Shown: positions 2,960-28,082, counted from the stretch's first letter. The stretch is DNA of 32,000 nucleotides from Pirellula staleyi DSM 6068 (GCA_000025185.1 CP001848.1:3420001-3452000); one strand, 5' to 3'. Translations and numbers: made by a program. Notes: generated from the letters alone by a model not told the origin.

Positions 2960-4195
2960 TTAGTCTGTTTTTTCCAGTTCATCCACCACTTGCTGTCCGA
3001 TTTGCAGCGCTGCAGTTGCGGCGGGGGAGGGGGCATTCAGTACATGCACCATCCGTCCCGATCGCTGAATCACAAAGTCATCGACAATCATTCCATCGGG
3101 CGCGACAGCCTGCGCTCGCACTCCTGCCGGGGCAACGTGCAGGTGCTGCTCGCGAATTTCTGGGACGAGTCGCGATAGAGCCCGAACAAACGCACGTTTG
3201 CTGAGTGAACGCCAGAATTCTCCGGCACCCATGCGCCAGTGCTTCGTTGCAAGCCGAAGAAACCCGCCGTACGTGAGTGTTTCAGCAAGATCCGCGAGGT
3301 TGATGTCGAGCATCCTGTACCCTTCGCGCGCGAAGGCCAGCACGGCGTTGGGGCCACACTCCACTCCCCCTTGAATCATCCGCGTGAAGTGCACTCCCAG
3401 GAACGGAAACGAGGGATCGGGCACCGGATAAATCAGCCCCTTCACTAAATGTTCGGCAGCTGGGGTGAGCTCGAAGTATTCGCCACGAAAAGGGACAATT
3501 TTGGCCGATGGTTTCTCACCAGCAGCTCGCGCGATACGGTCACTCTGCAGCCCGGCACAGCCGACCAGTTTCTGGGAACGAAAATCACCCGCTGTCGACT
3601 GGACAGTCACTTCGCCAGCAGAGGTGCGAATATCGGTGACTTGAGCACGCAAAATTACGTCGCCACCCCGCTGCTTAATCAGGGTGGTCAATTTCTCGCA
3701 AACGCCGCGATAATCCACAATTCCGGTCTCGGGAACATGAATCGCAGCGACTCCCGCAACGTGCGGCTCGATCTCGCGGAGCCTAGCGGCGGTGATCATT
3801 TCGCAGCGAACACCGTTTTGCGTTCCACGCTCGAGAATTTTTGCCAGCCGAGGGCGTTCTTCGTCACTGGTGGCGACAATCACTTTGCCGCAAATTTCGT
3901 AAGCCACGCCATGCTCGGCACAGAAGGTTTCGAGCAGCCGCTTTCCGATGCGGCAGTTCGTTGCCTTCAGTGAACCCGGCTTGTAGTAGATCCCCGAGTG
4001 GATCACGCCTGAATTGCGGCCGGTTTGATGAAAGGCCACCGACGCTTCTTTTTCCAGAACGATCACACGCTTATCGGGATGACGATTCTGTAACTGCCAG
4101 GCAGTTGCTAGTCCCACAATGCCGCCACCAACGACGACTACATCGCAGCGGCTGACGCTCGAGGAATGTACGGATGACACCGGGTGACTCGTCAT
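2960..4195 (-). CDS. lhgO: L-2-hydroxyglutarate oxidase/dehydrogenase (FAD-dependent)
   Basis: Rossmann motif 'DVVVVGGGIVGLATA'. It appears collinear with my recollection of E. coli LhgO in the blocks 'HQTGRNSGVIHSGIYYKPGSLKA', 'PFRGEYFELTP', 'LIYPVPDPSFPFLGVHFTRMIQGGVECGPNAVLAFAREGYR', 'PAGVRAQAVAPDGMIVDDF' and 'HVLNAPSPAATAAL'. I chose the ATG at 4195 (M29 of the 439-aa ORF) because it sits just before the dinucleotide-binding fold. The longer ORF extends to 4279. Confidence 0.9.
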   Translation of the reverse strand: MTSHPVSSVHSSSVSRCDVVVVGGGIVGLATAWQLQNRHPDKRVIVLEKEASVAFHQTGRNSGVIHSGIYYKPGSLKATNCRIGKRLLETFCAEHGVAYEICGKVIVATSDEERPRLAKILERGTQNGVRCEMITAARLREIEPHVAGVAAIHVPETGIVDYRGVCEKLTTLIKQRGGDVILRAQVTDIRTSAGEVTVQSTAGDFRSQKLVGCAGLQSDRIARAAGEKPSAKIVPFRGEYFELTPAAEHLVKGLIYPVPDPSFPFLGVHFTRMIQGGVECGPNAVLAFAREGYRMLDINLADLAETLTYGGFLRLATKHWRMGAGEFWRSLSKRAFVRALSRLVPEIREQHLHVAPAGVRAQAVAPDGMIVDDFVIQRSGRMVHVLNAPSPAATAALQIGQQVVDELEKTD

Positions 4196-4461
4196 GGTTG
4201 GCAAAGAAGCGAGGCTGAAATTGCGTCGCACTGAGGTGGCGAAACGATGCCGTATTGTAGTCTCACGCACTATGGACACGCGATTTCATCGCTAGCAGAA
4301 AGCGCAAGTCGCTATCTGACAAGGTGTTGCATGGCAGCAAAGTCGCTCTGGTACGACAAGCAGGGGGGCAGTACACTCCCGAGCCAATTCTATTCAGCAT
4401 CGGCACTCCAGAACGGAGTGCGATCGAGCCAACTTTGGGGCTCAGGAGTTGAATCCACGTA

Positions 4462-5478
4462 GTGGTCGGTCCTTCGATGAGTTCAGACAGTCTCCAGCAA
4501 CAACAGCCGGTTCATCCAGCGCAAAGACGCACAACTCTTCTGCTGCGCTGGTCTACTTGGATCATCGTCGGATGTCTGGTCGCATTGACTCCAGCCTCAG
4601 TACAGGGGCAGTATGCCGCCGGAGATCCCGAAGTCCTTGGTGGAGAACTCGCCGGACCGGGCGAATATCTCGATCTCGACTGGTATCTCGCTCAAGGGGG
4701 CGAACTGGGGCCCTCCGAACCATGGTCGCTGCAGTTGCTGCCCGAGGGAATCATCTACAAACCGTATCTCGCGAGCACGAAAGAGTCGCGACTTGCGGCA
4801 ACGATTGTCAGCACGACCAAGCAAGGGACCAATTGGGATGCAACTCTCGGTGGTCGAATCGGGCTCGCGAGGCTCGGAACCGAAAACGAAGTTCTGCCGG
4901 AAGGTTGGCAGCTGGATGTGGAAGGTTCTGCACAAGTTCGCTTAAATCTCTCCGAAAATGTAGATGTGCAGAGCGTCGATTTTCGGGCAGGTTTGCCACT
5001 GACCTACGGGGTCGGACCGCACCGGATGAAGTTTGCTTACTACCACCTGAGCGCTCACATCGGCGATGAGTATCTGTTTGCTAACCCCGGCACGCCGCGA
5101 CAGAATTTTGCACGTGATGCCCTCGTACTTGGCTACGCACGTTATTTTTCGCCAGAGTTTCGCGCTTATGGCGAAATGGGCTGGGCGTTTTACTCCATCG
5201 AGAGCGAACCGTGGGAGTTCCAGTTCGGCGTCGATTATTCCCCATCGATGGCAACCGGATTTCAGGGGAGTCCCTTCTTTGGCGTGAATGGGCACCTGCG
5301 ACAAGAACTCGACTACAGCGGCACGCTTTCCGTGCAAGCAGGCTGGGCTTGGCGTGGGGATGAGACTGGGCATCTGCTGCGAGCCGGACTTCAGTATTAC
5401 AACGGTGCCAGTAGCCAGTTTGCGTTCTATCGCCGCTTTGAAGAGCAAATTGGCTTTGGCCTCTGGTATGACTATTAA
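4462..5478 (+). CDS. Secreted DUF1207-like putative outer-membrane beta-barrel protein
   Basis: 338-aa ORF. A GTG at 4462 lies 13 nt after the SD-like AGGAG at 4444-4448. An alternative ATG is at 4477. The signal peptide is 'LLLRWSTWIIVGCLVALTPASVQG'. The motif 'YYHLSAHIGDEYL' and the aromatic C-terminus 'GFGLWYDY' recall the DUF1207 family. This family assignment is from memory and was not searched. Confidence 0.6.
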   Translation: MVGPSMSSDSLQQQQPVHPAQRRTTLLLRWSTWIIVGCLVALTPASVQGQYAAGDPEVLGGELAGPGEYLDLDWYLAQGGELGPSEPWSLQLLPEGIIYKPYLASTKESRLAATIVSTTKQGTNWDATLGGRIGLARLGTENEVLPEGWQLDVEGSAQVRLNLSENVDVQSVDFRAGLPLTYGVGPHRMKFAYYHLSAHIGDEYLFANPGTPRQNFARDALVLGYARYFSPEFRAYGEMGWAFYSIESEPWEFQFGVDYSPSMATGFQGSPFFGVNGHLRQELDYSGTLSVQAGWAWRGDETGHLLRAGLQYYNGASSQFAFYRRFEEQIGFGLWYDY

Positions 5479-13420: not shown

Positions 13421-16400
13421 ATGGCCATTCGTGTCGCCCTGCATCACAAGACGGAATATGCCTACGATCGTCTTATTACGGCCCTGCCGCACGTGGTTCG
13501 GCTGCGCCCCGCACCTCATTGCCGCACGCCGATTCTCAGCTATTCGCTGAAAGTGCAGCCGGAACCTCACTTCCTCAATTGGCAACAAGACCCGTACAAC
13601 AACTTCCTCGCTCGCTTGGTGTTTCCCGAAGCCACCAAGATCGTTTCGTTCGAAGTCGATCTGATCGCCGAGATGACGGTGATCAATCCGTTCGACTTCT
13701 TCATTGAAAGCTCGGCCGAGAAGTTCCCGTTCACTTACGACACCATCCTCTCGCGCGAACTGACGCCGTACTTCGAAAAAGAAGAGCTCGGTCCTTGTCT
13801 GGCGAAACTTGTCAGCGATCAGCGGGGCGAGGAGGAGCGAACCGTCGACTTTCTGGTGCGCATCAATCAAGCGGTGAAAGATGCCGTGGGTTATGTGATT
13901 CGCCTCGAGCCCGGCATTCAGACCTGCGAAGAAACCCTCACTAAGAAAACAGGTTCTTGTCGCGATAGCGCTTGGCTCTTGGTGCAGTTGCTACGTCACC
14001 TCGGCTTGGCCGCGCGATTTGTTTCCGGCTATTTGATTCAGCTGACAGCCGACGTGAAATCGCTCGATGGACCGAGTGGAACGGAAGTCGATTTCACCGA
14101 TCTACACGCCTGGACCGAAGTCTATATCCCCGGCGCAGGCTGGATCGGACTCGACCCCACCTCTGGTCTTCTCGCTGGCGAAGGGCATATCCCACTCGCT
14201 TGTGCAGCTGATCCGATTTCGGCAGCGCCGATCACCGGTTCGTTCGAGTTCACCGTCGATCCTGAAAAGCCCGACGACAAAGTTCGCGAAGATTTCCGCT
14301 TCGAAATGTCGGTCACGCGTGTTCACGAAGACCCGCGCGTCACGAAGCCATACACACCGCGTCAGTGGCAAGCGATCGAGTCCCTCGGCCATCGGGTCGA
14401 CGAAGAGCTCTCGACCTCCGACGTTCGTTTAACGATGGGTGGCGAGCCGACCTTTGTTTCCATCGATAATCGCGACGCACCTGAATGGAACACCGCTGCT
14501 TTGGGGCCACACAAGCGCGAGCGTGCCGGCGTGCTGTTTCGCCGATTACGCGATCGCATGGCTCCTGGCGGACTCTTGCACTTTGGACAAGGGAAGTGGT
14601 ATCCCGGTGAATCTTTGCCACGCTGGGCGCTCGGCTGTTATTGGCGAAAAGATGGCGTCGCGATCTGGGAAGATCCATCGCTGGTTGCTGAAGACGACGT
14701 GAAATATCCGTGGACTTCCGACGATGCCAAGGCATTTGCGCATTCCCTCGCGCGACGGCTTGGTGTCGATCCACAACTGGCCAATCCAGGCTTTGAAGAT
14801 GTTTGGTACTACCTCTGGCGCGAACGTCGTTTGCCAGTGAACGTCGATCCTCTCGACAGCAAGCTCGACGACAAAGAAGAACGAAAGCGCCTGAGCAAAG
14901 TCTTCACGCAAGGTCTCGACCGCGTGATCGGCTACGCATTGCCGCTGCGACGTGTTTACACGCCGATGGGGCCGAAGTGGATCAGCGGGCACTGGTTCTT
15001 GCGCCGCGAGCATATGTTCTTGGTTCCCGGCGATTCGCCGATGGGATTCCGACTGCCGCTCGATAGCATTCCTTGGCAAGTTCCCGGCGATCGTGAGGAA
15101 GACTTTGAAGTCGATCCGATGACCCGCTTGCCAGCGCTGCCACCTCGCAATTCGCAGTACAAGCATCCCGCCTTCCATCCCGATGGAATTCCGGGACCTT
15201 GGAATGTCAGCCCATGGGGAGCCACTCCCTTTGCGCCGCCATCGTATTTGACTCGCAATGGACAGAACCAAGTCGGCTCGGGATTAGGTCCCGCCGCGCC
15301 ACTGCTGCAGACGCCGCTCAGCCGCAGCTTGTCGCCGATGATCGACCCATCGAACAACGCACCTCTAGTGCGCGATTTGGCACGCGATTGGCAGCAGAAT
15401 CGTTCGCTGCTTTCACCTCCGGGGCTCAACGAGAGTCGTCCAGGCATTGTGCGAACAGCACTCTGCGTGGAAGTGCGCGACGGAAAAATGTTTGTCTTCA
15501 TGCCACCGCAAACGATCCTCGAGGACTACCTCGATCTCGTGGCGGCTGTCGAAGCTACGGCTGCCGAACTCGATATTCCGGTGATGCTCGAAGGCTATTC
15601 ACCTCCGGGCGATCCACGCATCGAGCACTTCAAGGTCACACCCGATCCAGGCGTGATTGAAGTGAACGTGCAGCCCGCTCACAGCTGGGACGAAATGGTG
15701 AATCTCACCAACGTTGTGTACGAAGAAGCTCATTTCTCGCGTCTATGTACCGAGAAGTTCATGCTCGATGGCAAGCATACCGGCACCGGTGGTGGCAATC
15801 ATATTGTCGTGGGTGGTAATACACCGGCCGACAGCCCGCTGCTCCGTCGTCCGCATCTGCTTCGTAGTTTGCTGGCGTATTGGCACAACCATCCGTCGCT
15901 GTCGTACTTGTTCTCCGGCATGTTCCTAGGCCCTACGAGCCAAGCGCCGCGCGTCGACGAAGCACGTAACGATAGTTTGTATGAGCTCGAACTCGCGTTT
16001 CAGCAGATTCCCGACGATGGCTACACGCCACCATGGCTGGTCGATCGTGTGTTCCGTCATTTGCTTACCGACGTGACTGGCAACACCCATCGGGCTGAAT
16101 TCTGCATTGATAAGCTCTACAGCCCCGATTCGGCTGATGGGCGTCGAGGTTTGCTCGAGTTCCGCGCGTTCGAAATGCCTCCTCACGCGCAAATGAGCCT
16201 CACGCAGCAATTGCTGATGCGGGCTCTCATCGCACGCTTCTGGGATCGGCCTTACAAAGCAAAGCTCGCTCGCTGGGGAACGGAGCTTCACGACCGTTTT
16301 CTGCTGCCACACTTTGTACAGCAAGATTTCCAAGATGTGCTGTTCGAGATGCGCGAACTGGGCTACCCGATGCAAGAAGCCTGGTTTGCTCCGCACTTCG

Positions 16401-17068
16401 AATTCCGCTTTCCCGTTTTGGGGACGATTCAGCAGCGCGGCGTGCAACTCGAGCTACGTCAGGCCATCGAGTGCTGGCATGTGCTCGGCGAAGAAGCGAC
16501 AGGTGGCGGAACTGCCCGCTATGTCGATTCGTCGCTCGAACGTATTCAGATCAAAGTCGATGGCATGACCGACACGCGGCATGTCGTCACCTGCAATGGC
16601 CGCCGTGTTCCGTTGCACCCGACCGGTGTAAATGGGCAATTCGTGGCCGGTGTTCGCTACCGTGCCTGGCAGCCACCCAGCTGTCTGCACCCCACAATCG
16701 GCGTGAACGCACCCCTGGTGATCGATGTGATCGACAGCTGGATGAACCGTTCGCTCGGCGGTTGCAGCTACCACGTGGCTCACCCAGGTGGTCGCAGTCA
16801 CGAAACGTTCCCGGTCAACTCGTTCGAAGCAGAAGGTCGCCGGCACGCACGGTTCTTCGCGATGAACCACACGCCAGGATCGATCTACATTCCTGCGGAA
16901 GAAATTCACCCCGAATGTCCTCTGACGCTCGATTTGCGACAAGCGGTGATTCCACCTGCTCCGGTTCCGTCAGAAGCTTCGAGCGGCCAAGTGCGGGCCG
17001 GAAGCAACGGTCGCGTCGGAAAGCCTCACACCGTCAACACCGCGACGGCTGAGCATACGGCTTGGTAA
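13421..17068 (+). CDS. Large transglutaminase-family protein (Bact_transglu_N + transglutaminase core + DUF2126-type C-terminal region)
   Basis: 1215-aa ORF with ATG at 13421. The N-terminus 'MAIRVALHHKTEYAYDRLITALPHVVRLRP' is typical of the bacterial transglutaminase N-domain. The putative Cys-His-Asp triad sits in 'GSCRDSAW' (Cys codon 13958-13960), 'DLHAWTEVY' and 'GLDPTSG'. The long C-terminal part ('RTALCVEVRDGKMFVFMPP', 'GTGGGNHIVVGG', 'LLEFRAFEMPPH') matches my recollection of DUF2126. Confidence 0.88.
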   Translation: MAIRVALHHKTEYAYDRLITALPHVVRLRPAPHCRTPILSYSLKVQPEPHFLNWQQDPYNNFLARLVFPEATKIVSFEVDLIAEMTVINPFDFFIESSAEKFPFTYDTILSRELTPYFEKEELGPCLAKLVSDQRGEEERTVDFLVRINQAVKDAVGYVIRLEPGIQTCEETLTKKTGSCRDSAWLLVQLLRHLGLAARFVSGYLIQLTADVKSLDGPSGTEVDFTDLHAWTEVYIPGAGWIGLDPTSGLLAGEGHIPLACAADPISAAPITGSFEFTVDPEKPDDKVREDFRFEMSVTRVHEDPRVTKPYTPRQWQAIESLGHRVDEELSTSDVRLTMGGEPTFVSIDNRDAPEWNTAALGPHKRERAGVLFRRLRDRMAPGGLLHFGQGKWYPGESLPRWALGCYWRKDGVAIWEDPSLVAEDDVKYPWTSDDAKAFAHSLARRLGVDPQLANPGFEDVWYYLWRERRLPVNVDPLDSKLDDKEERKRLSKVFTQGLDRVIGYALPLRRVYTPMGPKWISGHWFLRREHMFLVPGDSPMGFRLPLDSIPWQVPGDREEDFEVDPMTRLPALPPRNSQYKHPAFHPDGIPGPWNVSPWGATPFAPPSYLTRNGQNQVGSGLGPAAPLLQTPLSRSLSPMIDPSNNAPLVRDLARDWQQNRSLLSPPGLNESRPGIVRTALCVEVRDGKMFVFMPPQTILEDYLDLVAAVEATAAELDIPVMLEGYSPPGDPRIEHFKVTPDPGVIEVNVQPAHSWDEMVNLTNVVYEEAHFSRLCTEKFMLDGKHTGTGGGNHIVVGGNTPADSPLLRRPHLLRSLLAYWHNHPSLSYLFSGMFLGPTSQAPRVDEARNDSLYELELAFQQIPDDGYTPPWLVDRVFRHLLTDVTGNTHRAEFCIDKLYSPDSADGRRGLLEFRAFEMPPHAQMSLTQQLLMRALIARFWDRPYKAKLARWGTELHDRFLLPHFVQQDFQDVLFEMRELGYPMQEAWFAPHFEFRFPVLGTIQQRGVQLELRQAIECWHVLGEEATGGGTARYVDSSLERIQIKVDGMTDTRHVVTCNGRRVPLHPTGVNGQFVAGVRYRAWQPPSCLHPTIGVNAPLVIDVIDSWMNRSLGGCSYHVAHPGGRSHETFPVNSFEAEGRRHARFFAMNHTPGSIYIPAEEIHPECPLTLDLRQAVIPPAPVPSEASSGQVRAGSNGRVGKPHTVNTATAEHTAW

Positions 17069-17339: not shown

Positions 17340-17837
17340 ATGTCGATGTACATCGGCGAAGGTCTGGTCGGCGAAGGTAACGAAATCGCGCACATCGATC
17401 TGCTCATCGGCAGCAAGGATGGCCCTGTCGGCACTGCCTTCGCAAACGCTTTGGCCAATCAGCACGCAGGTCACACCAACCTTCTCGCAGTGCTCACGCC
17501 TAACCTCGCCATCAAGCCAGCCACCGTGATGATCACCAAAGTGACCATCAAGGGAATGAAGCAAGCTGTGCAAATGTTCGGCCCAGCTCAAGCTGCAGTG
17601 GCCAAGGCCGTGGCCGACTCGGTCGAAGCTGGCATCATTCCTAAGGACAAGGCTGAAGATCTGGTCATCGTTTGCGGCGTGTTCATTCACCCAGCCGCTG
17701 CCGACGACAAGAAGATCTACCAGTACAACTACGAATCGACCAAGCTCGCCATCGCCAACGCCATGGCCGGCAAGCCAACCGTCGACGAGATGCTCGCTGG
17801 CAAAGAAGCAGCAGCTCACCCATTCCGTGGCTTCTAA
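17340..17837 (+). CDS. fae: Formaldehyde-activating enzyme (5,6,7,8-tetrahydromethanopterin hydro-lyase)
   Basis: Starting from the ATG at 17340 (SD GGGAG at 17326-17330, 9-nt spacer), the sequence reads 'MSMYIGEGLVGEGNEIAHIDLLIG...GHTNLLAVLTPNL...KVTIKGMKQAVQMFGPAQAAVAKAV...GVFIHPAAADDKKIYQYNYESTKLAI...AAHPF'. This appears collinear with my recollection of methylotroph Fae. The ORF track starts earlier, at 17286. Confidence 0.9.
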   Translation: MSMYIGEGLVGEGNEIAHIDLLIGSKDGPVGTAFANALANQHAGHTNLLAVLTPNLAIKPATVMITKVTIKGMKQAVQMFGPAQAAVAKAVADSVEAGIIPKDKAEDLVIVCGVFIHPAAADDKKIYQYNYESTKLAIANAMAGKPTVDEMLAGKEAAAHPFRGF

Positions 17838-17880
17838 GCTCCGCTGGGTCTGATCGCTTTTCGAGCGAAACTTTACAACT

Positions 17881-17919
17881 CACCTTGCGCAATTTTATGC
17901 GTAAGGTGGGTTGTTTTCG
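17881..17919 (+). terminator. Intrinsic terminator/attenuator between fae and mtd
   Basis: An 11-bp stem joins CACCTTGCGCA (17881-17891) and TGCGTAAGGTG (17898-17908) with one G-U pair and a 6-nt loop. GGTTGTTTTCG follows it. It lies 44 nt after the fae stop. Confidence 0.7.
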
Positions 17920-17977
17920 TATCGGTAGGTATGTTTGCCATGCCAGCCCGCACTATATCGAGATCGAGGTTAGGGCC

Positions 17978-18841
17978 ATGAGTAAGCCGAAAATTCTTTT
18001 GCAACTCGACCCCGATACACAAGCCAGCGTGTTCGACGCAGTGGTGGCAGTCGACAGCGGAGTCGATCATCTGCTGCAGTATCGGGGGGTTACTCCCGGG
18101 CAAGTCCGTGATTTGGTGCACGGCTGTATCTTTACCCGTGGCGGAGCCGATCTGGCTGCGACCGCGATTTTTGTCGGAGGCTCGCAAATAGCCGCTGGCG
18201 AGGCGCTCCTCGGCGAAGTTTTAGCCAGTTTTTTTGGCCCCATGCGTGTGAGTGTGATGCTCGATGCAAGCGGTGCAAACACCACCGCAGCCGCCGCTGT
18301 TTTGGCCGCTTCCAAGCACCTCGACCTGTCGCAAATCAGTGCCACGGTGCTCGGCGGAACGGGGCCTGTAGGTCAGCGCGTAGCGCGATTGCTAGTCGGC
18401 AGTGGTGCTTCCGTCAAACTAGCTTCGCGAGCCATCGAACGGGCCGAAATTGCTTGTAGTGAGATTCGTCAGCGAAATCCCGGCGGCTCTATCACGGCAG
18501 TGAAAACGTCAAATGATGATGAAACGCTCGCTGCCATCGCTGGCTCGCAATTGGTTGTTGCAGCGGGGGCTGCTGGTATCGTCCTACTCAAAAAATCGCA
18601 GATCGAAGCTGCCACCGATTTGAAGGTGGTGGTCGATCTCAACGCTGTGCCACCGCTGGGAATCGAAGGGGTAAAGTCCTCTGACAAAGCAGCTCAGCTC
18701 GGACATGTCTTGGCGTATGGTGCCCTGGGAGTTGGTGGCACCAAAATGAAGATCCATCGCGCTTGTGTGGCGTCGCTGTTCGAGAGCAACTCCCAAGTGC
18801 TCGACGCCGAAGCGATCTTCGAAGTTGGCAAAAAGCTCTAG
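17978..18841 (+). CDS. mtdC: NAD(P)-dependent methylene-tetrahydromethanopterin (/H4F) dehydrogenase, MtdA/MtdB/MtdC family
   Basis: ATG at 17978 with GAGG 8 nt upstream. The sequence 'MSKPKILLQLDPDTQASVFDAVVAVDSGVDHLLQYRGVTP...IFTRGG...TAIFVGG...FFGPMRVSVMLDASGANTTAAAAV...VLGGTGPVGQRVARLL...GALGVGGTKMKIHRACVASLFES' appears collinear with my recollection of M. extorquens MtdA. The MtdC label is the class reported for planctomycetes and the subfamily was not verified. The upstream part of the 389-aa ORF (17672-17977) is Arg-rich, looks like non-coding noise and overlaps fae. Confidence 0.85.
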   Translation: MSKPKILLQLDPDTQASVFDAVVAVDSGVDHLLQYRGVTPGQVRDLVHGCIFTRGGADLAATAIFVGGSQIAAGEALLGEVLASFFGPMRVSVMLDASGANTTAAAAVLAASKHLDLSQISATVLGGTGPVGQRVARLLVGSGASVKLASRAIERAEIACSEIRQRNPGGSITAVKTSNDDETLAAIAGSQLVVAAGAAGIVLLKKSQIEAATDLKVVVDLNAVPPLGIEGVKSSDKAAQLGHVLAYGALGVGGTKMKIHRACVASLFESNSQVLDAEAIFEVGKKL

Positions 18842-20689: not shown

Positions 20690-21706
20690 ATGACCGATCC
20701 TCGGCTTCCATGTGGCCAGCAGTGGGCTGCTCCCGGCAAATGGCCTCTGGTGGGCGAGCGATGGCCCGATCCTGCCCTGTCACCCACAGAGCTAACAATC
20801 GAGGGGTGCTGCGCATTTCCCCAAACGATAACTCTCGAGCAGATTGCTTCGCTTCCACCAACCACGCTCACGCTCGACATTCACTGCGTCACACGTTGGT
20901 CGCAAAAGTCCCTCACGTTTCGTGGCGTGTTGCTCCGCGATTTGCTCAGCGAATCGCAGCCGAAGCCCAGTGCTCGATTTGTTGCGTACATCGCGCGCTC
21001 GACTCGACTGCATAGCACCAGTATGCCACTTGCCGATGCGCTGGAACTTGGCACCCTCCTAGCAACGCACGTCGATGGCGAGCCGATATCGACCGAGCAT
21101 GGAGGGCCGCTGCGCGTCATCACGCCTGGGCGTTACTTTTACAAAAGCCTGAAGTGGCTCATGAAGATCGAGCTGCTGGAAGAAGACCGACTCGGCTACT
21201 GGGAAGCGGCAGCCGGATATCACAATCACGCCGATCCATGGCTTGAAGAGCGTTACGTCTCTTCGAGCCTCTCGCGCGCCGATGCGCTCGCACTAGTTAC
21301 TTCGCGAGACCTCTCCGGTAAAGAACTCCTCTCGCTCGATCTGCGTGGTCACGAGCTTTCCCATCTCCAGGCCGTGGCAGCGATCTTGCGTAACAGCAAC
21401 TTCAATCGGTGCCAACTGCTGGCAGCCGACTTCAGCCGCGCGAATCTATCCAACGCAACATTTTGCGAGGCCGATTTGCGAGGGGCTCAGTTTCGCGAGG
21501 CTGATCTCGAAGGGGCCAGCTTTTTAGGAGCGAACCTCAGCGGTGCCGACTTGCGAGGTGCTTCGCTGCTTGGCTGCACGTTCGTGAGTGGAATGGCTCA
21601 GCCGACCTGCCAAATCGACCGAACTACCCAGTTCTCAGCTACTGCACTCAACATGCTCTCGACCCTTGAGGCGGAGTTCATCGCCGCTCACGCTCTCGTC
21701 AGTTAA
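20690..21706 (+). CDS. Sulfite-oxidase-family molybdopterin-binding domain fused to C-terminal pentapeptide repeats
   Basis: ATG at 20690 with GAGGA about 12 nt upstream. The N-terminal roughly 190 aa reads 'TLDIHCVTRWSQKSLTFRGVLLRDLL...THVDGEPISTEHGGPLRVITPGRYFYKSLKWLMKIELLEEDRLGYWE', which fits an Oxidored_molyb/YedY-like fold with a candidate Mo-ligand Cys. Residues 205-300 (21302-21589) read 'NSNFNRCQLLAADFSRANLSNATFCEADLRGAQFREADLEGASFLGANLSGADLRGASLLGCTF' and form tandem A(D/N)LxX pentapeptide repeats. No signal peptide is apparent. Confidence 0.82.
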   Translation: MTDPRLPCGQQWAAPGKWPLVGERWPDPALSPTELTIEGCCAFPQTITLEQIASLPPTTLTLDIHCVTRWSQKSLTFRGVLLRDLLSESQPKPSARFVAYIARSTRLHSTSMPLADALELGTLLATHVDGEPISTEHGGPLRVITPGRYFYKSLKWLMKIELLEEDRLGYWEAAAGYHNHADPWLEERYVSSSLSRADALALVTSRDLSGKELLSLDLRGHELSHLQAVAAILRNSNFNRCQLLAADFSRANLSNATFCEADLRGAQFREADLEGASFLGANLSGADLRGASLLGCTFVSGMAQPTCQIDRTTQFSATALNMLSTLEAEFIAAHALVS

Positions 21707-21760: not shown

Positions 21761-21850
21761 GGTGCGATTCGGTCAACCGATCGCGCAAACTTTGCCGATG
21801 GATCAGAATAGAGCGCGACCACCACAAGAACTTCCAGGGTGTGCAATTCG

Positions 21851-22120
21851 ATGATCCGCATCCAGCTGCTAGCAATGCTGATGTTTTTGGCGATCGGTGT
21901 GATCTCGACCAGCGAAGTCATGGCCGGACCACCGTCGTATCTGCTGCTGCGAGATAGCGCATCACCTAGTCCGCCACATCAGCCGGGCGAGCCCGATGCG
22001 CAGTACTATCAGCAGCGCACCACAGGCTATGCCTACGGCTGGTTCGGTGCCTGTCCCCGAACGCATGCCACGCGGCACTTCGGCATCTACCGCGAGTACA
22101 CGCAGTGGAGTTTCCGCTAG
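21851..22120 (+). CDS. Small secreted hypothetical protein (89 aa)
   Basis: The ATG at 21851 gives the signal peptide 'MIRIQLLAMLMFLAIGVISTSEVMA'. The mature part is Pro/Tyr-rich and contains 'GYAYGWFGACP'. No recognisable family. The coding call rests on the signal peptide and the ORF only. Confidence 0.5.
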   Translation: MIRIQLLAMLMFLAIGVISTSEVMAGPPSYLLLRDSASPSPPHQPGEPDAQYYQQRTTGYAYGWFGACPRTHATRHFGIYREYTQWSFR

Positions 22121-22184: not shown

Positions 22185-24008
22185 CTACTGGCGAGTGGCA
22201 CCGACAAAGAAGCTGAACACCTGGCGATCGTCGCCATCGGCATCTGACACAGGGAAAGCGAAGTCGAGAGCCAGTGGTGCTGGCCCGAGCGCCGGAACGC
22301 TAACTCGCAAACCAAAGCCGGGAGCCACGCGGAAATTGTCTCCATTGAGGGCGATTTCCTGTTCCACGGTACCAAAGTCGCAGAACACGGTTCCTTTGAT
22401 CATGTCGTCGGCCGTGAGTGGAAAGAAGTATTCCACCGAGTTCAGCCAGCGGAATTCACCACCTACGCGCACTGTGTTATCAATCGGCGAAGCGCCACGG
22501 AAGCTAAAGCCGCGAAGGGTCGAGTAACCACCCGCAAAGTAGTTCTCAAAGATCGGTGTTTGCGACCCGGTGAAGCCGGCACGCGACGAGAACGAGAGTG
22601 TGTGACGTCCCGAACCGTCGGGGCGTTCACGCAGCAGAAAATATTTGCTGTACTCTGCTTCAAAGCGTGGATAGTCGAAATCGCCAAACACTTGTTCGTA
22701 CGAAAGCTCGATCAAGTGACCTTCGGTCGGCATGAAAATCAGGTCGCGCGTGTCGTGGGTCAGCGTTACTTTGCCACTGAACAAATCGTGCTTGCCAAGT
22801 GCGTTGTCGAGTTCAGCTACACCCAGCACACGCGGATCAAACACGTTGACATTCTCGGCCCGCACCGCACCACTCACCGAAAGATCGGGCGACAAGCGAT
22901 AACCCCACGACAGTCGACCGCCATAGCGCGATTCGTCGTAGTCGTAGTAGTTGCGGTCGAAGTAAAACGCACTCGCGCTGAAACTGACGTTACTATCCAT
23001 GAAGTACGGATCGGTGAAGCTCACCAAGTAACGCTGTACCTGATCACCTGGCTGTGCTTCCAAGCGAAACCCTTGACCACGACCTCGGAAGGCTGTGCCG
23101 TTGGCAAAATCGTCCCAGCTCGAGGGAAAGCCAAAAATGTCGAAGTTCCGTTCGTCGACTGTAATCTGACCAGTCACACCTGCATCGCTGTTCACACCCA
23201 CACCGAACATAAACCGTCCCGTGCGTGCCTCTTGCACCACGATATCCAGCGGCGTTGGTGTCCCTTGAATCTCTTCGGCAGTGGGAGCGATGTTCGAAGG
23301 TGGCTGCCACAAGGGATACGAAGGACCGAACCATCCACCACTTCCTCCCGAAGGATTCGAGATGGCATTGGGAGCACCGGCGGGAGGGACTTCAAACGTC
23401 CCTGCAGGCGGAGGTGGCAGGGGAGGTGTTCCAAAGTTATCGATGGCAGGATTGCCTGCCCCTGGATAAACCGCAGGCGGTGGCGAGTAGCCAGGCTGCG
23501 AGGCAAACGTCGAAGGTGTGCCGCTTGGTGGTGCGTATGGCTGCGGCGTGTAGGGCTGGGGAGCGGTGGAATACGTGGGAGGTGCAGCGGGCTGAGTGCC
23601 GTAGGCCGAGGGCTGTGGCGCGTAGTTGGGTTGCCCATAGCTGGGATAGGTCGGTGCCGTGTTCTGAGCAAGTTGGCCAGAAACAGGCATCGGACCACGA
23701 CGATACAGGTCGCCACCAGGGAGCCCTGCGCTGTCGTAAGCATCTGGCGACTGAAAGCGAACCACAGGTTCTTCACTAGCCGCAGTTGTGACAGTCGGGG
23801 GAGTGTAGTTCGTGGTAGTCGGGCCAAGACGCGGAGCTGTGTCTGCAGGGAGCGCTGGTGCTGTTGCAGCCGGATAACCACACGAGCCACCGGCGCACGA
23901 CTGGCAATTCCAGCAGTTACCCTGCGGCGCAACACACCCCATGGTGACGATCGAGAAGATCGTACCGAGTGCGAGCAGCAAATTGACAACGTAGCGCTTC
24001 AAGTGCAC
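22185..24008 (-). CDS. Omp85/BamA-type beta-barrel protein lacking POTRA domains, with its own signal peptide and a long Pro/Tyr/Gln-rich N-terminal linker
   Basis: 607-aa ORF starting at GTG 24008 with AGGA just upstream. The N-terminus 'MHLKRYVVNLLLALGTIFSIVTMG-C' looks like a signal peptide with a lipobox-like Cys. Residues 45-250 are low-complexity P/Y/Q/A. The C-terminal roughly 350 aa show the Bac_surface_Ag barrel hallmarks 'VVQEARTGRFMFGVGVNSDAGVTGQITVDERNFDIFG', 'GGRLSWGYRL' and 'YFAGGYSTLRGF'. The sequence ends '...QVFSFFVGATRQ'. Confidence 0.82.
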   Translation of the reverse strand: MHLKRYVVNLLLALGTIFSIVTMGCVAPQGNCWNCQSCAGGSCGYPAATAPALPADTAPRLGPTTTNYTPPTVTTAASEEPVVRFQSPDAYDSAGLPGGDLYRRGPMPVSGQLAQNTAPTYPSYGQPNYAPQPSAYGTQPAAPPTYSTAPQPYTPQPYAPPSGTPSTFASQPGYSPPPAVYPGAGNPAIDNFGTPPLPPPPAGTFEVPPAGAPNAISNPSGGSGGWFGPSYPLWQPPSNIAPTAEEIQGTPTPLDIVVQEARTGRFMFGVGVNSDAGVTGQITVDERNFDIFGFPSSWDDFANGTAFRGRGQGFRLEAQPGDQVQRYLVSFTDPYFMDSNVSFSASAFYFDRNYYDYDESRYGGRLSWGYRLSPDLSVSGAVRAENVNVFDPRVLGVAELDNALGKHDLFSGKVTLTHDTRDLIFMPTEGHLIELSYEQVFGDFDYPRFEAEYSKYFLLRERPDGSGRHTLSFSSRAGFTGSQTPIFENYFAGGYSTLRGFSFRGASPIDNTVRVGGEFRWLNSVEYFFPLTADDMIKGTVFCDFGTVEQEIALNGDNFRVAPGFGLRVSVPALGPAPLALDFAFPVSDADGDDRQVFSFFVGATRQ

Positions 24009-24023
24009 GTTCCTAAGGGCGGA

Positions 24024-25634
24024 TTACCGGGGGCTGTAGCTCGTGGCGGGAACAGGCGGTGCATACGGGCTCGGCGCGATGGGCATCGTGCCACTCGCAG
24101 GAATCACTGGGCTCGGAAGCTCGAGTGAATAAGGACCAACTTGCGGTTGCATCGGTGGATAAGCCGACGGTTGACGCACCACATCGCTGCGGGCTGGTGC
24201 ACGTGGCATGCGGCTGTCGTATTCAGGCTGCTGACCACGAACCGTGCTGCCACCACTCGAAGCGGTGTTGCCGATCGCTTGCAAATCAGGCGGTGTCACG
24301 ACAATTTTGGGGGGATCGCCTAGCTGGGGATTGGTTTCAAACAGCTGCGATGACTTCAAGCGGCGTTCACTTGCCCGCAGTTCTCGCGTGTCGAGAATAT
24401 CTCCCGGACGCAGACTCAAGCGGTTGAGAATCACACTCTCACGCGTGTGAGGATACTCCCCTTCGATCTTCACGCGGATATCGCCGACGCTGAACACGCC
24501 ACCCTCTTGCACGCGATACACCACGTCGAGTTGACCTGGCTCTTCGAGAAAGCGAGGGTCGGCTTGGACGTCGGCAAACACATGCCCTTGGCTTCCATAG
24601 AGATCAACAATGGTGTTAATATCTTTGGTCATTGCCGATTGATCGAAAAACTGACCACTCTTGAGTTCAAGGAAGTCGAGCAGCGGACCAGAGGCGAACT
24701 TGACATTCCCCTCGACCGACACGCTTCGCACGACATAACGCGGGCCTTCATCGATCACAAACTTCAGGGTGACCCATTTGCCCGAATCGTCGAACACCAT
24801 CTCACGACCGACACGAGCCCGAAAATATCCGAGGCTTCGATAGTAGCCCGTCAGCTTTTCGACATCGGCATCGATCTTCGAACGATCGACCTTGCCGCGC
24901 CAGAAATACCACATGATGCCAGGTTTCGACTCGATCTGAGTTTTGAGGCGAGCGTCGGTGGCGATGGTGTTCCCTTCGAACTCGACATCCCAAATTCGTT
25001 CGAGCGCACCTTCATTCACCAGGAATACGACACCCTTGTCCCCCGGCTTATCCCCCTCCAGGATCGAAATCTGAGCTTGGGGGAAACCACTCCGGTGATA
25101 AAGGTCCTCGATTTTGCGACGAGCTTCTTCCGTGGCGTAGCTGTTAATACTGTCGCCCACTTTGAGCCCGTGCTCTTTCACCATCTTCTTTTCGCTGACA
25201 CCCCGGTTGCCCAGGTGCCGGACATACTGAATCCGCGGCCGTTCAAACACTTCATAAATCACAATCACGCCACCATCGGCTGGGCGTGTATAGGTTTGAA
25301 CGTCGCGAAATAGACCCGTCGAAACGAGCGAGCGAACATCGCTTTGCACAAGCTCGGCATCGAATTCACGATCCTTGCGTGTGCGGAGGTGTTTTTGAAT
25401 TTCGTAGTCTTTGGTGATCGTGTTGCCACGTACTTGCACATCCACCACAAGCTGGGGAGCGGCGTTGGCGACGTTATAGCCCGAAGGAGCAGCTGGCGTA
25501 GCCATCGCTGGTAAAGCCGGTGGTGGCATGCTCGGTGGACCAAACTGCGCGCGAGCTTCGGCCTGGGCGATGAGCACCAGCAGTGCAATCGCGAGGTTGT
25601 GGCCATAGCGGAGTGGGTGATCGGCGACTGACAA
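24024..25634 (-). CDS. bamA: BamA-like periplasmic module: signal peptide + five POTRA domains + Pro-rich tail, no barrel
   Basis: Five POTRA-like repeats begin at 'VVDVQVRGN', 'IQYVRHLGN', 'IWDVEFEGN', 'VVRSVSVEGN' and 'VGDIRVKIEG'. The protein ends in the Pro-rich tail '...PSPYAPPVPATSYSPR' and stops at TAA 24024-24026. There is no in-frame ATG near the N-terminus. I chose the TTG at 25634, which has GGGGGA 8 nt upstream and gives 'MSVADHPLRYGHNLAIALLVLIAQAEA'. The ORF-track start at 25760 is also a TTG but has no SD. Confidence 0.8.
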   Translation of the reverse strand: MSVADHPLRYGHNLAIALLVLIAQAEARAQFGPPSMPPPALPAMATPAAPSGYNVANAAPQLVVDVQVRGNTITKDYEIQKHLRTRKDREFDAELVQSDVRSLVSTGLFRDVQTYTRPADGGVIVIYEVFERPRIQYVRHLGNRGVSEKKMVKEHGLKVGDSINSYATEEARRKIEDLYHRSGFPQAQISILEGDKPGDKGVVFLVNEGALERIWDVEFEGNTIATDARLKTQIESKPGIMWYFWRGKVDRSKIDADVEKLTGYYRSLGYFRARVGREMVFDDSGKWVTLKFVIDEGPRYVVRSVSVEGNVKFASGPLLDFLELKSGQFFDQSAMTKDINTIVDLYGSQGHVFADVQADPRFLEEPGQLDVVYRVQEGGVFSVGDIRVKIEGEYPHTRESVILNRLSLRPGDILDTRELRASERRLKSSQLFETNPQLGDPPKIVVTPPDLQAIGNTASSGGSTVRGQQPEYDSRMPRAPARSDVVRQPSAYPPMQPQVGPYSLELPSPVIPASGTMPIAPSPYAPPVPATSYSPR

Positions 25635-25881
25635 GTTTTGGATCCCCCGATCCCAAGTGGAAGTTGCACATCGAAGAAGAAACGACAGCGCAGCGAAGGC
25701 ACGGTGAAACGCTGCCTTCGAGCGGTCGGTGTAATTACCGGAATGGGTAGCACCCGGCAAGGTCGTTTTGAGAGAAGCGGCGAAACTTCAGAAATTCTGC
25801 CGCAAAATGTGTTCGAGAGATGCTAGCAACCGAGGCAAGGAAAACCGCTAGCGACTCGCCTAAACGACCTGAAACAAGACT

Positions 25882-26625
25882 CTATTTGCGAAACTCGCGC
25901 CACTCGCCGCCGATCAGACGTTCGTGAGGCAAGTAGTTCCCCTTGTAGCGCATATGCTCGGACTGAGAGACGTAGTACCCCAAATAGAGCCACTTCTTAC
26001 CGAGTGTCGTGCACAGGGCTATTTCCTGAAGCACGGAGTAGGTGCCTAGGCTCACCTCTTTCACGCGTGGATCGTAGAACGTGTAGACAGCAGAGATTGC
26101 GCTAGCACCGACATCAATGATCGCGATCCCCACCAGCGTTTCGTCGAGGTAGTACGCGATCTCGCGGGTATCGCAGCAGCTGAGCGTGAGGAACGATTCG
26201 TAACCCTCGGCATCAAGATGCGATTCACCAGCCGTCAGCGATCGAAGTTCGCGATGCAAATTGAAGAGCTCGACGCGCTGGTCGTCGATCACAGCTGGCT
26301 GCACTTGCATCGTGATCAGCTCGCTGCCGCGTCTCAGCAGACGCCGCTGGGTGGCATTAGGGCGATAGTCGGCTGCGACAATCCGAATCGGCTCGCAAGC
26401 CTGACAAGCGGGACAATCTGGCTTATAGAGCATCGGACCAGTACGACGATCGCCAGCCGCAAGTCGCTCGTCGAACTCCGCATGCGACAATCGTCGCAGC
26501 TGCATCCGAAGGGGCATCCGTGCGACAAGTCCCGGCAAATAAGGACAATCGGAAGGCTCGTCGTAGGCCAAGAATTCGACCGGCGATGTCTCTTCCTCTT
26601 CCGATCCGTCTTCGCCCCTAGTCAT
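25882..26625 (-). CDS. bpt: Aspartate/glutamate leucyltransferase (bacterial ATE-family N-end-rule transferase)
   Basis: ATG at 26625 (M2 of the track ORF, whose first codon is TTG). Motifs 'CPYLPG', 'RRTGPMLYKPDCPACQACEPIRI', 'RPNATQRRLLRRG', 'AVYTFYDP....SLGTYSVLQEI' and 'WLYLGYYVSQSEHMRYKGNYLPHERL' match the Bpt/ATE family. Confidence 0.85.
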   Translation of the reverse strand: MTRGEDGSEEEETSPVEFLAYDEPSDCPYLPGLVARMPLRMQLRRLSHAEFDERLAAGDRRTGPMLYKPDCPACQACEPIRIVAADYRPNATQRRLLRRGSELITMQVQPAVIDDQRVELFNLHRELRSLTAGESHLDAEGYESFLTLSCCDTREIAYYLDETLVGIAIIDVGASAISAVYTFYDPRVKEVSLGTYSVLQEIALCTTLGKKWLYLGYYVSQSEHMRYKGNYLPHERLIGGEWREFRK

Positions 26626-28082
26626 CAAAAGTTTCCACCTGCTTCGCCACCAGGAAACTGGTTGTAGCTGTCGAACTGCTCGAGTCGATCGGGAGTTGGG
26701 TCTTGAAACCGCGTGAAGTTCTTCAGGAACTCGAGCTTGATATCTTCGCCAGCCGGACCACTTCGCTGTTTACCAATGATGATCTGCGCCTGACCCGACA
26801 CCGAGTCGCGCTCTTCTCCTCGAAGATAATACTCTTCGCGATGCACGAACATCACCACGTCGGCATCTTGCTCGATTGCTCCCGATTCTCGCAGGTGCGA
26901 CATCTTAGGAATTTTGTCCGTTCCCGCTTCTGTCTGTCGGTTGAGCTGGGCCAGACAAAGCACTGGCACTTTCATTTCGCGAGCCATACCCTTCAGGCGG
27001 CGAGCAATGCGTGCCACCTGTTCCTGACGCGGGTCTTTGGTGTTGTCGGGTTCGATCAGCTGCAGGTAGTCGACGACGATCAGCCCGAGACGTCCCTCGC
27101 GGCGAGCAATGCGCCGCGCGGCTGCTGCAATCTCTGTCACGGTGCGGCTGGGAGAGTCGTCGACAAACAGCGGCGCTTGCGCAAGCTTGCTCGAAGCGTT
27201 CACGATCTTGGTGCGATCTTCGCGTGTTAGTGTACCGGCCCTGAGACGCGTACCTTCGACCCGCGCAACCGAACAGAGCAAACGATCGGCGAGTTCGAGC
27301 GACGACATTTCGAGGCTGACAAACAGTGCCGGCACGTTTTGGTTGAGCGCTACGTTCTCAGCGATGTTCATCGCAAACGCGGTTTTTCCCATCGCCGGGC
27401 GAGCTGCCAAAATGATGAGCTCGCCGTTGTGCATGCCACTCGTTTTTTCATCGAGTCCGCGAAATCCATACTCCACACCACTGGTGTCGAGTGTTCCGCT
27501 CATGCGAGCTTCAAGTCGGTCCATCGACTTCTGCAAAACATCCTTGAGCGATTGCACGGTGTTGTCGCCGCGCACATCCAGGATCGAGAAGATCTTTTGC
27601 TCAGCTTGCGAGAGCAGGTGCTTAGCTTCCTGCGATTCGTCGTACGCATCACGCAAGATTTCCGTCGATGCTTGAATGAGCGAGCGAAAAGTGCTCTTGG
27701 TACGGACGATCTCAGCGTAGTAGGTCGCGTGCGCAGCGTTGGGGACCGAGTTGATGATTTTGCTGAGATACGCCGTGCCACCCACCGCCTCGAAATCGCC
27801 GGCGGTTTTCAGGCGATCGATCAGCAGCGTGGGATCGATCTTTTTGTTCCCCTCGTGCAGCGCACACATGTGGCTGAACAGCTTGCGATGCGCATCGTCG
27901 TAGAAGTCTTCTGAACGGACGATCATCACTACGTCGTCGAGCACATCGGGCAATAGCACTATCGAGCCCAAGAGACCAATTTCTGCCTGACGATCAAAAG
28001 GAGGCTGTCGATCACCAACCTGTTCGGCTGGCTGCTCGAACAAGCGGCGTGCTGCACCATCTTCACGACGATTCTTGGCCAC
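26625..28082 (-). CDS. dnaB: Replicative DNA helicase DnaB
   Basis: 485-aa ORF with GTG at 28082 and AAGGAAG 8 nt upstream. N-terminal 'PPFDRQAEIGLLGSIVLLPDVLDDV', Walker A 'ILAARPAMGKTAFAMNIA', 'VVDYLQLI' and 'PVLCLAQLNRQTE' are present. Confidence 0.95.
   Translation of the reverse strand: MAKNRREDGAARRLFEQPAEQVGDRQPPFDRQAEIGLLGSIVLLPDVLDDVVMIVRSEDFYDDAHRKLFSHMCALHEGNKKIDPTLLIDRLKTAGDFEAVGGTAYLSKIINSVPNAAHATYYAEIVRTKSTFRSLIQASTEILRDAYDESQEAKHLLSQAEQKIFSILDVRGDNTVQSLKDVLQKSMDRLEARMSGTLDTSGVEYGFRGLDEKTSGMHNGELIILAARPAMGKTAFAMNIAENVALNQNVPALFVSLEMSSLELADRLLCSVARVEGTRLRAGTLTREDRTKIVNASSKLAQAPLFVDDSPSRTVTEIAAAARRIARREGRLGLIVVDYLQLIEPDNTKDPRQEQVARIARRLKGMAREMKVPVLCLAQLNRQTEAGTDKIPKMSHLRESGAIEQDADVVMFVHREEYYLRGEERDSVSGQAQIIIGKQRSGPAGEDIKLEFLKNFTRFQDPTPDRLEQFDSYNQFPGGEAGGNF

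Follow-up and report, generated by a model that had tools for sequence, protein, structure and literature searches.

The planctomycete Pirellula staleyi DSM 6068 appears to build its BamA from the products of two genes. The stretch of DNA analysed here, called the window, comprises 32,000 nucleotides (nt) of its genome (GCA_000025185.1 CP001848.1:3420001-3452000). Positions 22185 to 25760 hold, on the minus strand, two adjacent open reading frames (ORFs): an upstream one with the POTRA domains (ORF-A) and a downstream one with the Omp85 β-barrel (ORF-B), separated by a TAA stop. With a probability of about 0.8, this locus is considered to be the bamA of the organism, inherited in Pirellulaceae as a two-gene operon whose two chains are re-joined in the periplasm. 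The gene is split, the split is conserved among relatives, each half carries a predicted signal peptide of its own, the cut lies within the fifth POTRA domain (POTRA5), and the pair is positionally orthologous to the fused genes of sister lineages.

Two genes and the stop between them

ORF-A, the candidate POTRA subunit of a split BamA, extends over 24024..25760 (minus strand, as are all coordinates below unless a plus sign is given) and counts 578 amino acids (aa) from its first TTG when the frame is opened mechanically. In the NCBI record it starts at TTG 25634 and has 536 aa (ADB17333.1 / WP_012911595.1). A signal peptide makes sense only from this shorter start. The mechanical frame runs 42 codons 5′ of the annotated TTG (25635-25760); metagenome gene callers use the long 578-aa version and NCBI the 536-aa one, and AlphaFold2 (AF2) places a helix at residues 13-34 of this extension, though it is probably untranslated. 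ORF-A ends with TAA at 24024-24026. After 15 nt, tccgcccttaggaac (24009-24023), GTG 24008 opens ORF-B (22185..24008) in the frame of ORF-A, and its 607 codons run to the TAG at 22185-22187. These coordinates hold as they were given in the initial annotation, a reading of the sequence that had proposed two separate proteins. The NCBI start of ORF-B is TTG 24002, two codons after GTG 24008, which yields a 605-aa product beginning MKRYVV (ADB17332.1 / WP_012911594.1). The spacer up to this annotated TTG (24003..24023) contains a Shine-Dalgarno-like AGGA at 24011-24014, 8 nt 5′ of TTG 24002. NCBI labels the products ‘POTRA domain-containing protein’ (ORF-A) and ‘BamA/TamA family outer membrane protein’ (ORF-B), and ORF-B matches, at 100% identity, a protein of P. 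staleyi DSM 6068 recorded as ‘surface antigen (D15)’.

Domain models and homologues agree on how BamA is divided between the two products. In ORF-A, Pfam recognises five POTRA stretches (3.3e-53), and in ORF-B it recognises Omp85 (PF01103) at residues 307-604 (1e-52). On the BamA model TIGR03303, ORF-A covers positions 3-372 and ORF-B positions 387-739; the single gene products score 219.3 and 179.4 bits, respectively, against a curated cut-off of 297.15. The best 120 homologues of ORF-A (434-624 aa) contain POTRA domains only, and the best 120 homologues of ORF-B (349-667 aa) contain Omp85 only. The 16-stranded barrel of ORF-B, delimited at residues 262-605 (22188..23219) by Pfam, AF2 and Foldseek, includes the (V/I)RG(F/Y) motif, a conserved loop-6 motif of BamA/Omp85 barrels, as STLRGFSFRG at residues 494-503, of which R497 and G498 are invariant in homologues; LRGF itself was read in the sequence at 22506-22514.

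The stop is found in independent sequence. Three assemblies that are independent of one another, one an ENA metagenome and two built by Logan from SRA runs, match the junction to the base, the TAA included, and in each of them the two genes are called separately. A comparative scan with one genome per species yielded 80 loci, all from Pirellulaceae-type planctomycetes, among them the isolates Blastopirellula marina, Anatilimnocola sp. and Candidatus Laterigemmans. The 72 loci with enough flanking sequence, together with metagenome locus L001, make up the 73 related loci that were judged, or 74 when the window is counted. In 73/73 related loci the barrel gene is immediately preceded, on the same strand, by the POTRA gene, and a fused POTRA-barrel gene occurs in 0/73. 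The barrels of these loci share 60-78% identity with that of the window, so both genes are under purifying selection.

These data bear on three alternatives that the initial annotation had left beside its two proteins, namely a recent nonsense mutation, an assembly error and programmed readthrough of the TAA. One in-frame stop is the trace expected of a recent mutation, of a sequencing or assembly error, or of a decaying paralogue. The identical junction in three assemblies rules out the error, and the split in all 73 related genomes, with intact ORFs at such levels of identity, rules out the recent mutation; by gene order, the locus moreover corresponds to the one fused bamA that sister lineages have, which speaks against a decaying paralogue, and this whole group of explanations can be set aside for practical purposes. 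Readthrough, by which a single fused BamA would be made and the shared frame would be functional, could draw on the arrangement in P. staleyi, where the two ORFs lie in the same frame, one stop and 15 nt apart, but it is very improbable and finds no support among relatives. Over the 74 loci, the barrel frame relative to the POTRA gene is the same in 24, +1 in 27 and +2 in 23, the three stop codons of the POTRA gene are used equally (TAA 26, TAG 25, TGA 23), and the intergenic distance lies anywhere between −4 and 276 nt, several pairs overlapping by 4 nt. A frame relation, stop identity and context conserved across orthologues, as in recoding sites, are thus absent, and an Rfam scan gives no element between the genes. 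ORF-B also possesses its own Shine-Dalgarno-like sequence, start codon and signal peptide, and a readthrough product would bear a hydrophobic segment that fused relatives do not have. Because relative frames are random over the 74 loci, the shared frame of P. staleyi, a one-in-three event, and its 15-nt spacer are chance features with no recoding signal. Of the junction features pointed out in the initial annotation, orthologues keep the two-gene split and the hydrophobic segment, and the length of the spacer is not kept. Promoter and terminator scans of 21.5-26.5 kb gave nothing informative and no terminator between the genes, where the spacer leaves no room for a promoter or a terminator.

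The cut inside POTRA5 and its ancestry

The position of the cut emerges from alignment with the single-chain protein of E. coli. In BLASTP, residues 57-397 of E. coli BamA align with ORF-A 136-476 (96.7 bits) and residues 398-809 with ORF-B 240-605 (65.9 bits). POTRA5 of E. coli BamA spans about residues 347-421, with which PDB entry 4c4v is consistent, and an alignment break at residue 397/398 therefore places the junction inside this domain. The last piece of POTRA5 in ORF-A is strand β2, LFETNPQLGDPPKIVVTPP, and ORF-B 249-262, PTPLDIVVQEARTG, aligns with the E. coli segment SPDQVDVVYKVKERNTG, which comprises strand β3 and the hinge (BamA 408-422). These ORF-B residues lead directly into barrel strand 1, RFMFGVGVNSDAGV. 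Residues D253, V256, E258, T261 and G262 of ORF-B are invariant or nearly so in homologues. In canonical relatives, the β2 and β3 pieces are contiguous, as in GIAPTVTIL-DPDG-PSPFKDVLVEVHEDRTGSLMFGVGINS.

ORF-A thus contains POTRA1 to POTRA4 as complete β-α-α-β-β units (residues 104-418, 24507..25451; predicted local distance difference test, pLDDT, above 90 in AF2), followed by an incomplete POTRA5 (residues 424-491, 24288..24491; BLASTP and AF2) that has β1, α1, α2 and β2 (PPKIVVTPP) without β3. The missing strand is found on ORF-B, as residues 249-258 (PTPLDIVVQE) followed by the hinge ARTG (23229..23258), according to both the E. coli alignment and AF2. The five POTRA domains of the initial annotation are therefore present as five Pfam stretches in ORF-A, the fifth without its last β-strand, and the barrel chain, which had been described as POTRA-less, carries β3 of POTRA5. 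Five β-α-α-β-β units are recovered in the AF2 model of the joined halves, the fifth being shared by the two chains. A POTRA arm and a barrel on one polypeptide are found neither in the window nor in the 73 related loci, where a stop lies between them.

Between the two parts of POTRA5 lies a long region of low complexity. It comprises the C-terminal tail of ORF-A (residues 492-578, 24027..24287), which is predicted to be disordered from its composition (P 21%, S 14%) and its pLDDT of ∼40 and measures 16-134 aa among relatives, and the linker of ORF-B (residues 24-248, 23259..23933), likewise predicted to be disordered (P 22%, A 13%, G 11%; pLDDT <50). In relatives, the linker side has 90-330 aa when counted from the in-frame stop that precedes it up to the barrel match, a count that includes the signal peptide. 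Deletion of this region in silico yields a protein of 782 aa that matches TIGR03303 in one stretch over positions 3-739 of 741, with 404.1 bits, well above the cut-off given above. Since a single stretch is restored in this way, the linker is a giant, lineage-specific disordered insertion in the β2-β3 hairpin of POTRA5, within which the gene was cut.

Relatives with an undivided gene show the same insertion. The barrel domain alone was searched against 1.84 billion cluster representatives. Of the best 150 hits, which have 44-68% barrel identity, 96 are single POTRA+Omp85 proteins, in which POTRA5 and the barrel are 14 to 506 residues apart. A third homologue search used the two joined halves as a query. 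Its best 120 hits are without exception fused proteins, of 893-1270 aa, and carry the names Pirellulales, Thermoguttaceae, Thermopirellula anaerolimosa, Planctomycetales or Planctomycetia; Thermopirellula is a member of Thermoguttaceae, and its order is also that of Pirellula. At this exact point of POTRA5, the insertions of relatives form a series from 13 aa in Gemmatales, to which the canonical short form of 787 aa belongs, through 50-90 and 250-500 aa to the split. Examples are P0366 and P0388 (canonical), P0329, P0331 and P0353 (50-90 aa) and P0242, P0351 and P0371 (up to 506 aa), and single-chain BamA of Planctomycetia reach 1493 aa. This expansion of the POTRA5 hairpin across Planctomycetia appears to be undescribed.

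Gene order connects the split and fused forms. Two fused genes (1120 and 1083 aa; loci L086 and L087) lie just downstream of rpsF-ssb-rplI-dnaB, a neighbourhood they have in common with the split pair in the window and in loci L001 and L082, and the split pair is therefore the positional orthologue of the single bamA. In a neighbour-joining tree of barrels, the window falls within one large clade in which 101/102 tips are split; the fused P0250 (1046 aa) lies inside this clade, and five split lipoprotein forms (P0249, P0268, P0278, P0312, P0358) lie among fused sequences. This distribution hints at more than one fission, or at re-fusion, in a tree that is too crude for counting events.

Conserved short motifs punctuate the disordered parts. 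Motif 1, R-G-Q-x-P, occurs ∼15 residues past β2 of POTRA5 in the ORF-A tail, as TVRGQQP (24225..24245; R508, G509, Q510, P512); in 99 POTRA-subunit homologues R508, Q510 and P512 are invariant and the glycine is nearly so, and in 120 fused relatives the motif is conserved at ≥90%. Its pLDDT in the AF2 models of the window's proteins is <50. Motif 2, a second copy in the ORF-B linker, VVRFQSP followed by LPGGDLYRRGPMPVSG (23676..23765), has Q84 invariant in 93 barrel-subunit homologues, with YRRGPMPVSG after VVRFQSP. The pattern [VIL]R[GAF]Q is matched in 57/74 loci, and fused relatives keep the corresponding Q598 almost without exception. Fused insertions usually hold one or two copies, with a range from one to four (P0242, P0246 and P0248 being among them), and short insertions of 50-90 aa already hold one. 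Where split forms were inspected for this point, motif 1 lies on one side of the cut and motif 2 on the other. AF2 gives both as disordered; that they are short docking motifs for a partner is speculation. The motif of the ORF-A tail was also considered as a stand-in for β3 in cis, an idea that is not supported, the motif being disordered when ORF-A is modelled alone.

Predicted export, lipidation and reassembly of the two chains

Both chains start with a predicted export signal. Read from its annotated start, ORF-A has a type-I signal peptide, MSVADHPLRYGHN / LAIALLVLIA / QAEARA (25548..25634), with an A-R-A cleavage motif before QF and an AF2 helix at residues 55-70. ORF-B starts with MKR / YVVNLLLALGTIFSIV / TMG-C (23934..24002), ending at Cys23 in a lipobox-like manner, and this basic, hydrophobic and TMG-C succession is as the initial annotation had described it. 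The same annotation held that such a segment would be out of place in the linker of a fused protein. Expressed as the maximum Kyte-Doolittle hydrophobicity in an 11-residue window (KD11), the linker between POTRA5 and barrel of fused relatives has a median of 1.05 and reaches ≥2.0 in 3/120, compared with 2.48 in P. staleyi. As fused linkers have no comparable hydrophobic segment, the one of ORF-B is taken to be a signal peptide gained along with the split. Two separately exported chains, as initially proposed, are very probable in view of the 73/73 split, the uniform spread of frames, the single-domain homologues and the signals on each chain.

Several features suggest that ORF-B is probably lipidated on Cys23. 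Of the 74 barrel ORFs, 69, that of the window among them, begin with a hydrophobic stretch and have [GAS]-Cys at most a few residues behind it, and a stricter PROSITE-type lipoprotein pattern fits 54 loci. In these 54, the +2 residue is A in 25, S in 8, T in 6 and V in 6 (45/54), and never Asp. The P. staleyi N-terminus has the predicted n-region, h-region and lipobox Cys of a lipoprotein and fits the permissive PROSITE-type pattern. Cys-free barrel signals ending in AxA or Q, of a type-I-like kind (Anatilimnocola type), occur in 3/74 loci, and the barrel signal is unclear in 2/74, both from metagenome-assembled genomes (MAGs).

Two side observations concern this part of the barrel chain. A Cys-rich stretch, CVAPQGNCWNCQSCAGGSC (23880-23936; ORF-B residues 23-41), comes right after the lipobox Cys, and in many relatives (L001, L005, L021 and others) this position too has several cysteines, accompanied by a recurrent SPWGP motif; these residues could form disulfides or bind metal. 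In the MAG loci L056 (∼3917-4882) and L069 (∼3958-4813), no signal peptide was found in the barrel frame, and the translation of the upstream stretch, Arg-rich in L069, seems to be in the wrong frame. Errors that shift the frame in low-complexity DNA are the probable cause, and pseudogenes a possible one.

Structure prediction was applied to the joined halves and to ORF-A alone. The AF2 model of the window's ORF-A plus ORF-B, with the 120 fused relatives as alignment, has a mean pLDDT of 74 and a predicted template-modelling (TM) score of 0.64. In it, POTRA1-4 are each complete, POTRA5 receives β1, α1, α2 and β2 from ORF-A, 287 residues after β2 have a pLDDT <50, and ORF-B 249-258 forms a 10-residue strand (pLDDT ∼93) that precedes 16 barrel strands. 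The joined halves are thus predicted to adopt a BamA-like fold. In Foldseek, the best match of this model is the full-length BamA of Neisseria gonorrhoeae (9cmw_A, 771 aa), with a target-normalised TM-score of 0.69, more than the barrel alone could give, and a root-mean-square deviation of 6.4 Å; E-values to BamA chains are 2e-43 or weaker. Modelled alone with 98 POTRA-only homologues as alignment, ORF-A gives POTRA1-4 and the two POTRA5 helices with high confidence, no POTRA5 strands and a disordered tail. In the POTRA topology, β3 occupies the middle of the sheet, with β1 and β2 on either side. The outcome for ORF-A alone is as expected if β3 bridges these two strands.

Lipidation, physical reassembly and function are what we infer from these data, in the following scheme. 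The ancestor would have been a single BamA whose POTRA5 had taken up a large insertion, Pro-rich and disordered, in its β2-β3 hairpin, a form that survives in Thermoguttaceae and other Pirellulales. The gene would then have been cut inside the insertion, and the downstream half would have gained its own signal peptide. ORF-A would be exported by Sec through its type-I signal and become a soluble periplasmic protein with POTRA1-4, an incomplete POTRA5 (β1-α1-α2-β2) and a disordered tail. ORF-B, with its lipoprotein-type signal and probably acylated on Cys23, would have ∼225 disordered residues before β3, the hinge and the 16-strand barrel in the outer membrane. Its β3 would slot into the POTRA5 of ORF-A, taking the central place between β1 and β2, and this strand complementation would recreate the canonical POTRA5-hinge-barrel unit, so that the complex would work as an ordinary BamA. 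That the chains are rejoined by strand complementation is rather likely on the basis of the models. The full combination, in which a lipid-anchored barrel subunit gives the central strand of POTRA5 to a soluble POTRA subunit after separate export, following a possibly repeated fission, always between two R-G-Q-x-P copies (docking elements perhaps), in a loop whose expansion had come first, in Planctomycetia, is on balance slightly favoured.

A number of points weigh against this scheme. AlphaFold2 was trained on many BamA structures and was given fused homologues, and may impose the canonical arrangement; the pairing of β3 with β1 and β2 was deduced from secondary-structure assignments in two runs with different alignments. 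The lipobox of P. staleyi, V-T-M-G-C, departs from strict [LVI][ASTVI][GAS]C and is atypical in its T at −3 and M at −2, and a few relatives of the Anatilimnocola type have no Cys, so that lipidation is not obligatory. ORF-B could then use an ordinary type-I signal and be unlipidated, its conserved Cys having another role, for example in disulfides of the Cys-rich stretch. Three or four relatives with Cys-free, AxA-type signals and the further cysteines just after the first in several relatives are in line with this explanation, which is nevertheless unlikely when set against the [GAS]-Cys straight after the hydrophobic region in 69/74 loci, the 54 matches to the stricter pattern and the small, uncharged, lipoprotein-typical residues at +2. 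A type-I signal on an unlipidated ORF-B is in any case compatible with the rest of the two-chain model.

A more radical explanation makes the two products independent, ORF-A being a free periplasmic POTRA chaperone and ORF-B a self-sufficient Omp85 insertase lacking a POTRA arm, with no stable complex between them. Omp85 proteins without an N-terminal domain do exist elsewhere (Heinz and Lithgow 2014), and the disordered regions are long. Yet ORF-B keeps β3 with its invariant residues directly before barrel strand 1, and the POTRA5 of ORF-A is without exactly this strand and forms no sheet alone in AF2. The genes are also always adjacent, sometimes with 4-nt overlaps, and the two halves tile the BamA model end to end, which leaves independence no more than an outside chance.

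Neighbouring genes and comparison with known systems

Other genes of the window accompany the bamA pair. An arginyl/leucyl-tRNA-protein transferase gene (ATE_N/ATE_C; 25882-26628), which overlaps the dnaB stop by 4 nt, lies between dnaB (26625-28082) and the POTRA gene; the split loci L001 and L082-L084 have it too, and the two fused loci examined, L086 and L087, do not. Just downstream of the barrel gene, a small ORF (21839-22120, plus strand) encodes 93 aa with a signal-like N-terminus, MIRIQLLAMLMFLAIGVISTSEVMA, and no Pfam match, and a gene for 88-89 aa occupies the equivalent position in L001 (7880-8146) and L082 (6134-6403). The window also holds a molybdopterin oxidoreductase (sulfite-oxidase-like) domain fused to pentapeptide repeats (20690-21706, plus strand), whose gene also neighbours the bamA pair in L001 and L082. 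Farther away are a protein with a methylene-tetrahydromethanopterin dehydrogenase N-terminal domain (Mpt_N; 17672-18841, plus strand), encoded by one of the C1-transfer genes known from planctomycetes, and, adjoining it, a DUF2126/transglutaminase protein of 1215 aa (13421-17068, plus strand).

BamA is regarded as a universal single chain, and the covalent coupling of POTRA domains and barrel is thought to be functionally important. A family-wide two-chain BamA cut within POTRA5 would constitute a natural experiment on this coupling and a test case for periplasmic domain complementation, and would add a second lineage with a probably lipid-anchored Omp85 barrel, with a bearing on the debated planctomycete envelope. 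The bamA gene is essential in Planctopirus limnophila (PMC10632474). Outer-membrane surveys that use BamA as a marker will get weak, half-length hits in Pirellulaceae genomes. With E. coli BamA as a BLAST query, for example, the best P. staleyi hit was reported at 1e-22 with 24% identity, other Planctomycetia were similarly weak, and hits were stronger in Kuenenia (8e-46) and Verrucomicrobia (1e-39 or better) (Speth et al. 2012, PMC3422733); the value for P. staleyi fits a half-length match to ORF-A, an indirect argument against another, full-length bamA elsewhere in this genome. Classifications that count domains will misfile both halves. No description of a split or long-insertion planctomycete BamA was found in the searchable full-text literature, including the 2026 Chem Rev review of BAM, and none is given in Speth 2012, Heinz and Lithgow 2014, Cavalier-Smith 2006, the P. 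limnophila essential-gene study or the T. immobilis proteome. The preceding evolutionary step, a disordered insertion of 100-500 residues in the POTRA5 hairpin across Pirellulales, is likewise undescribed in that literature.

Known systems offer partial parallels. In chaperone-usher pili, a domain with an incomplete β-sheet is completed in the periplasm by a strand from another chain. This donor-strand complementation is a mechanistic analogy only, with no homology, and its counterpart in P. staleyi is deduced from models. TamL of Bacteroidota (NF052279) sets the precedent that an Omp85 barrel protein can have a signal peptide of the lipoprotein kind, but it keeps POTRA domains on the barrel chain, and membership of this family was rejected, the NF052279 scores being 32.7 bits for ORF-A and 15.5 for ORF-B against a cut-off of 400. 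Omp85 paralogues of the noNterm type are reportedly the subject of a 2024 study on Leptospira. NoNterm Omp85 proteins (Heinz and Lithgow 2014) resemble ORF-B as Omp85 barrel polypeptides without a complete POTRA domain, but they are extra paralogues beside a canonical BamA, whereas ORF-B is a positional orthologue of BamA. Identity with this type was also rejected, as ORF-B has a 225-aa linker and β3 of POTRA5, always lies beside a POTRA gene and occupies the syntenic position of bamA.

The closest comparisons are with BamA itself. Engineered hinge variants of E. coli BamA, which address the coupling of POTRA arm and barrel, show that hinge flexibility matters in the single chain (Csoma et al. 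2025, PMC12494951); the split form has its hinge (E-A-R-T-G) intact on ORF-B, the break being one strand upstream. Canonical BamA of E. coli and Neisseria (TIGR03303) has in common with the Pirellula form the five POTRA domains, the hinge, the 16-strand barrel, the loop-6 RGF and a collinear alignment. It differs in that the Pirellula form consists of two polypeptides, cut in POTRA5 with ∼310 disordered residues at the cut, and in that the Pirellula barrel chain has its own, probably lipoprotein-type, signal peptide; in E. coli, moreover, skp and lpxD follow bamA, which is not the case for the P. staleyi pair. The nearest system is the long-insertion single-chain BamA of other Pirellulales, the closest relatives, with 44-63% barrel identity, synteny after ssb-rplI-dnaB and a disordered insertion with R-G-Q-x-P motifs in the β2-β3 loop of POTRA5. 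Unlike the split pair, it occupies a single ORF of 893-1493 aa, free of internal stops, whose insertion has no hydrophobic segment resembling a signal.

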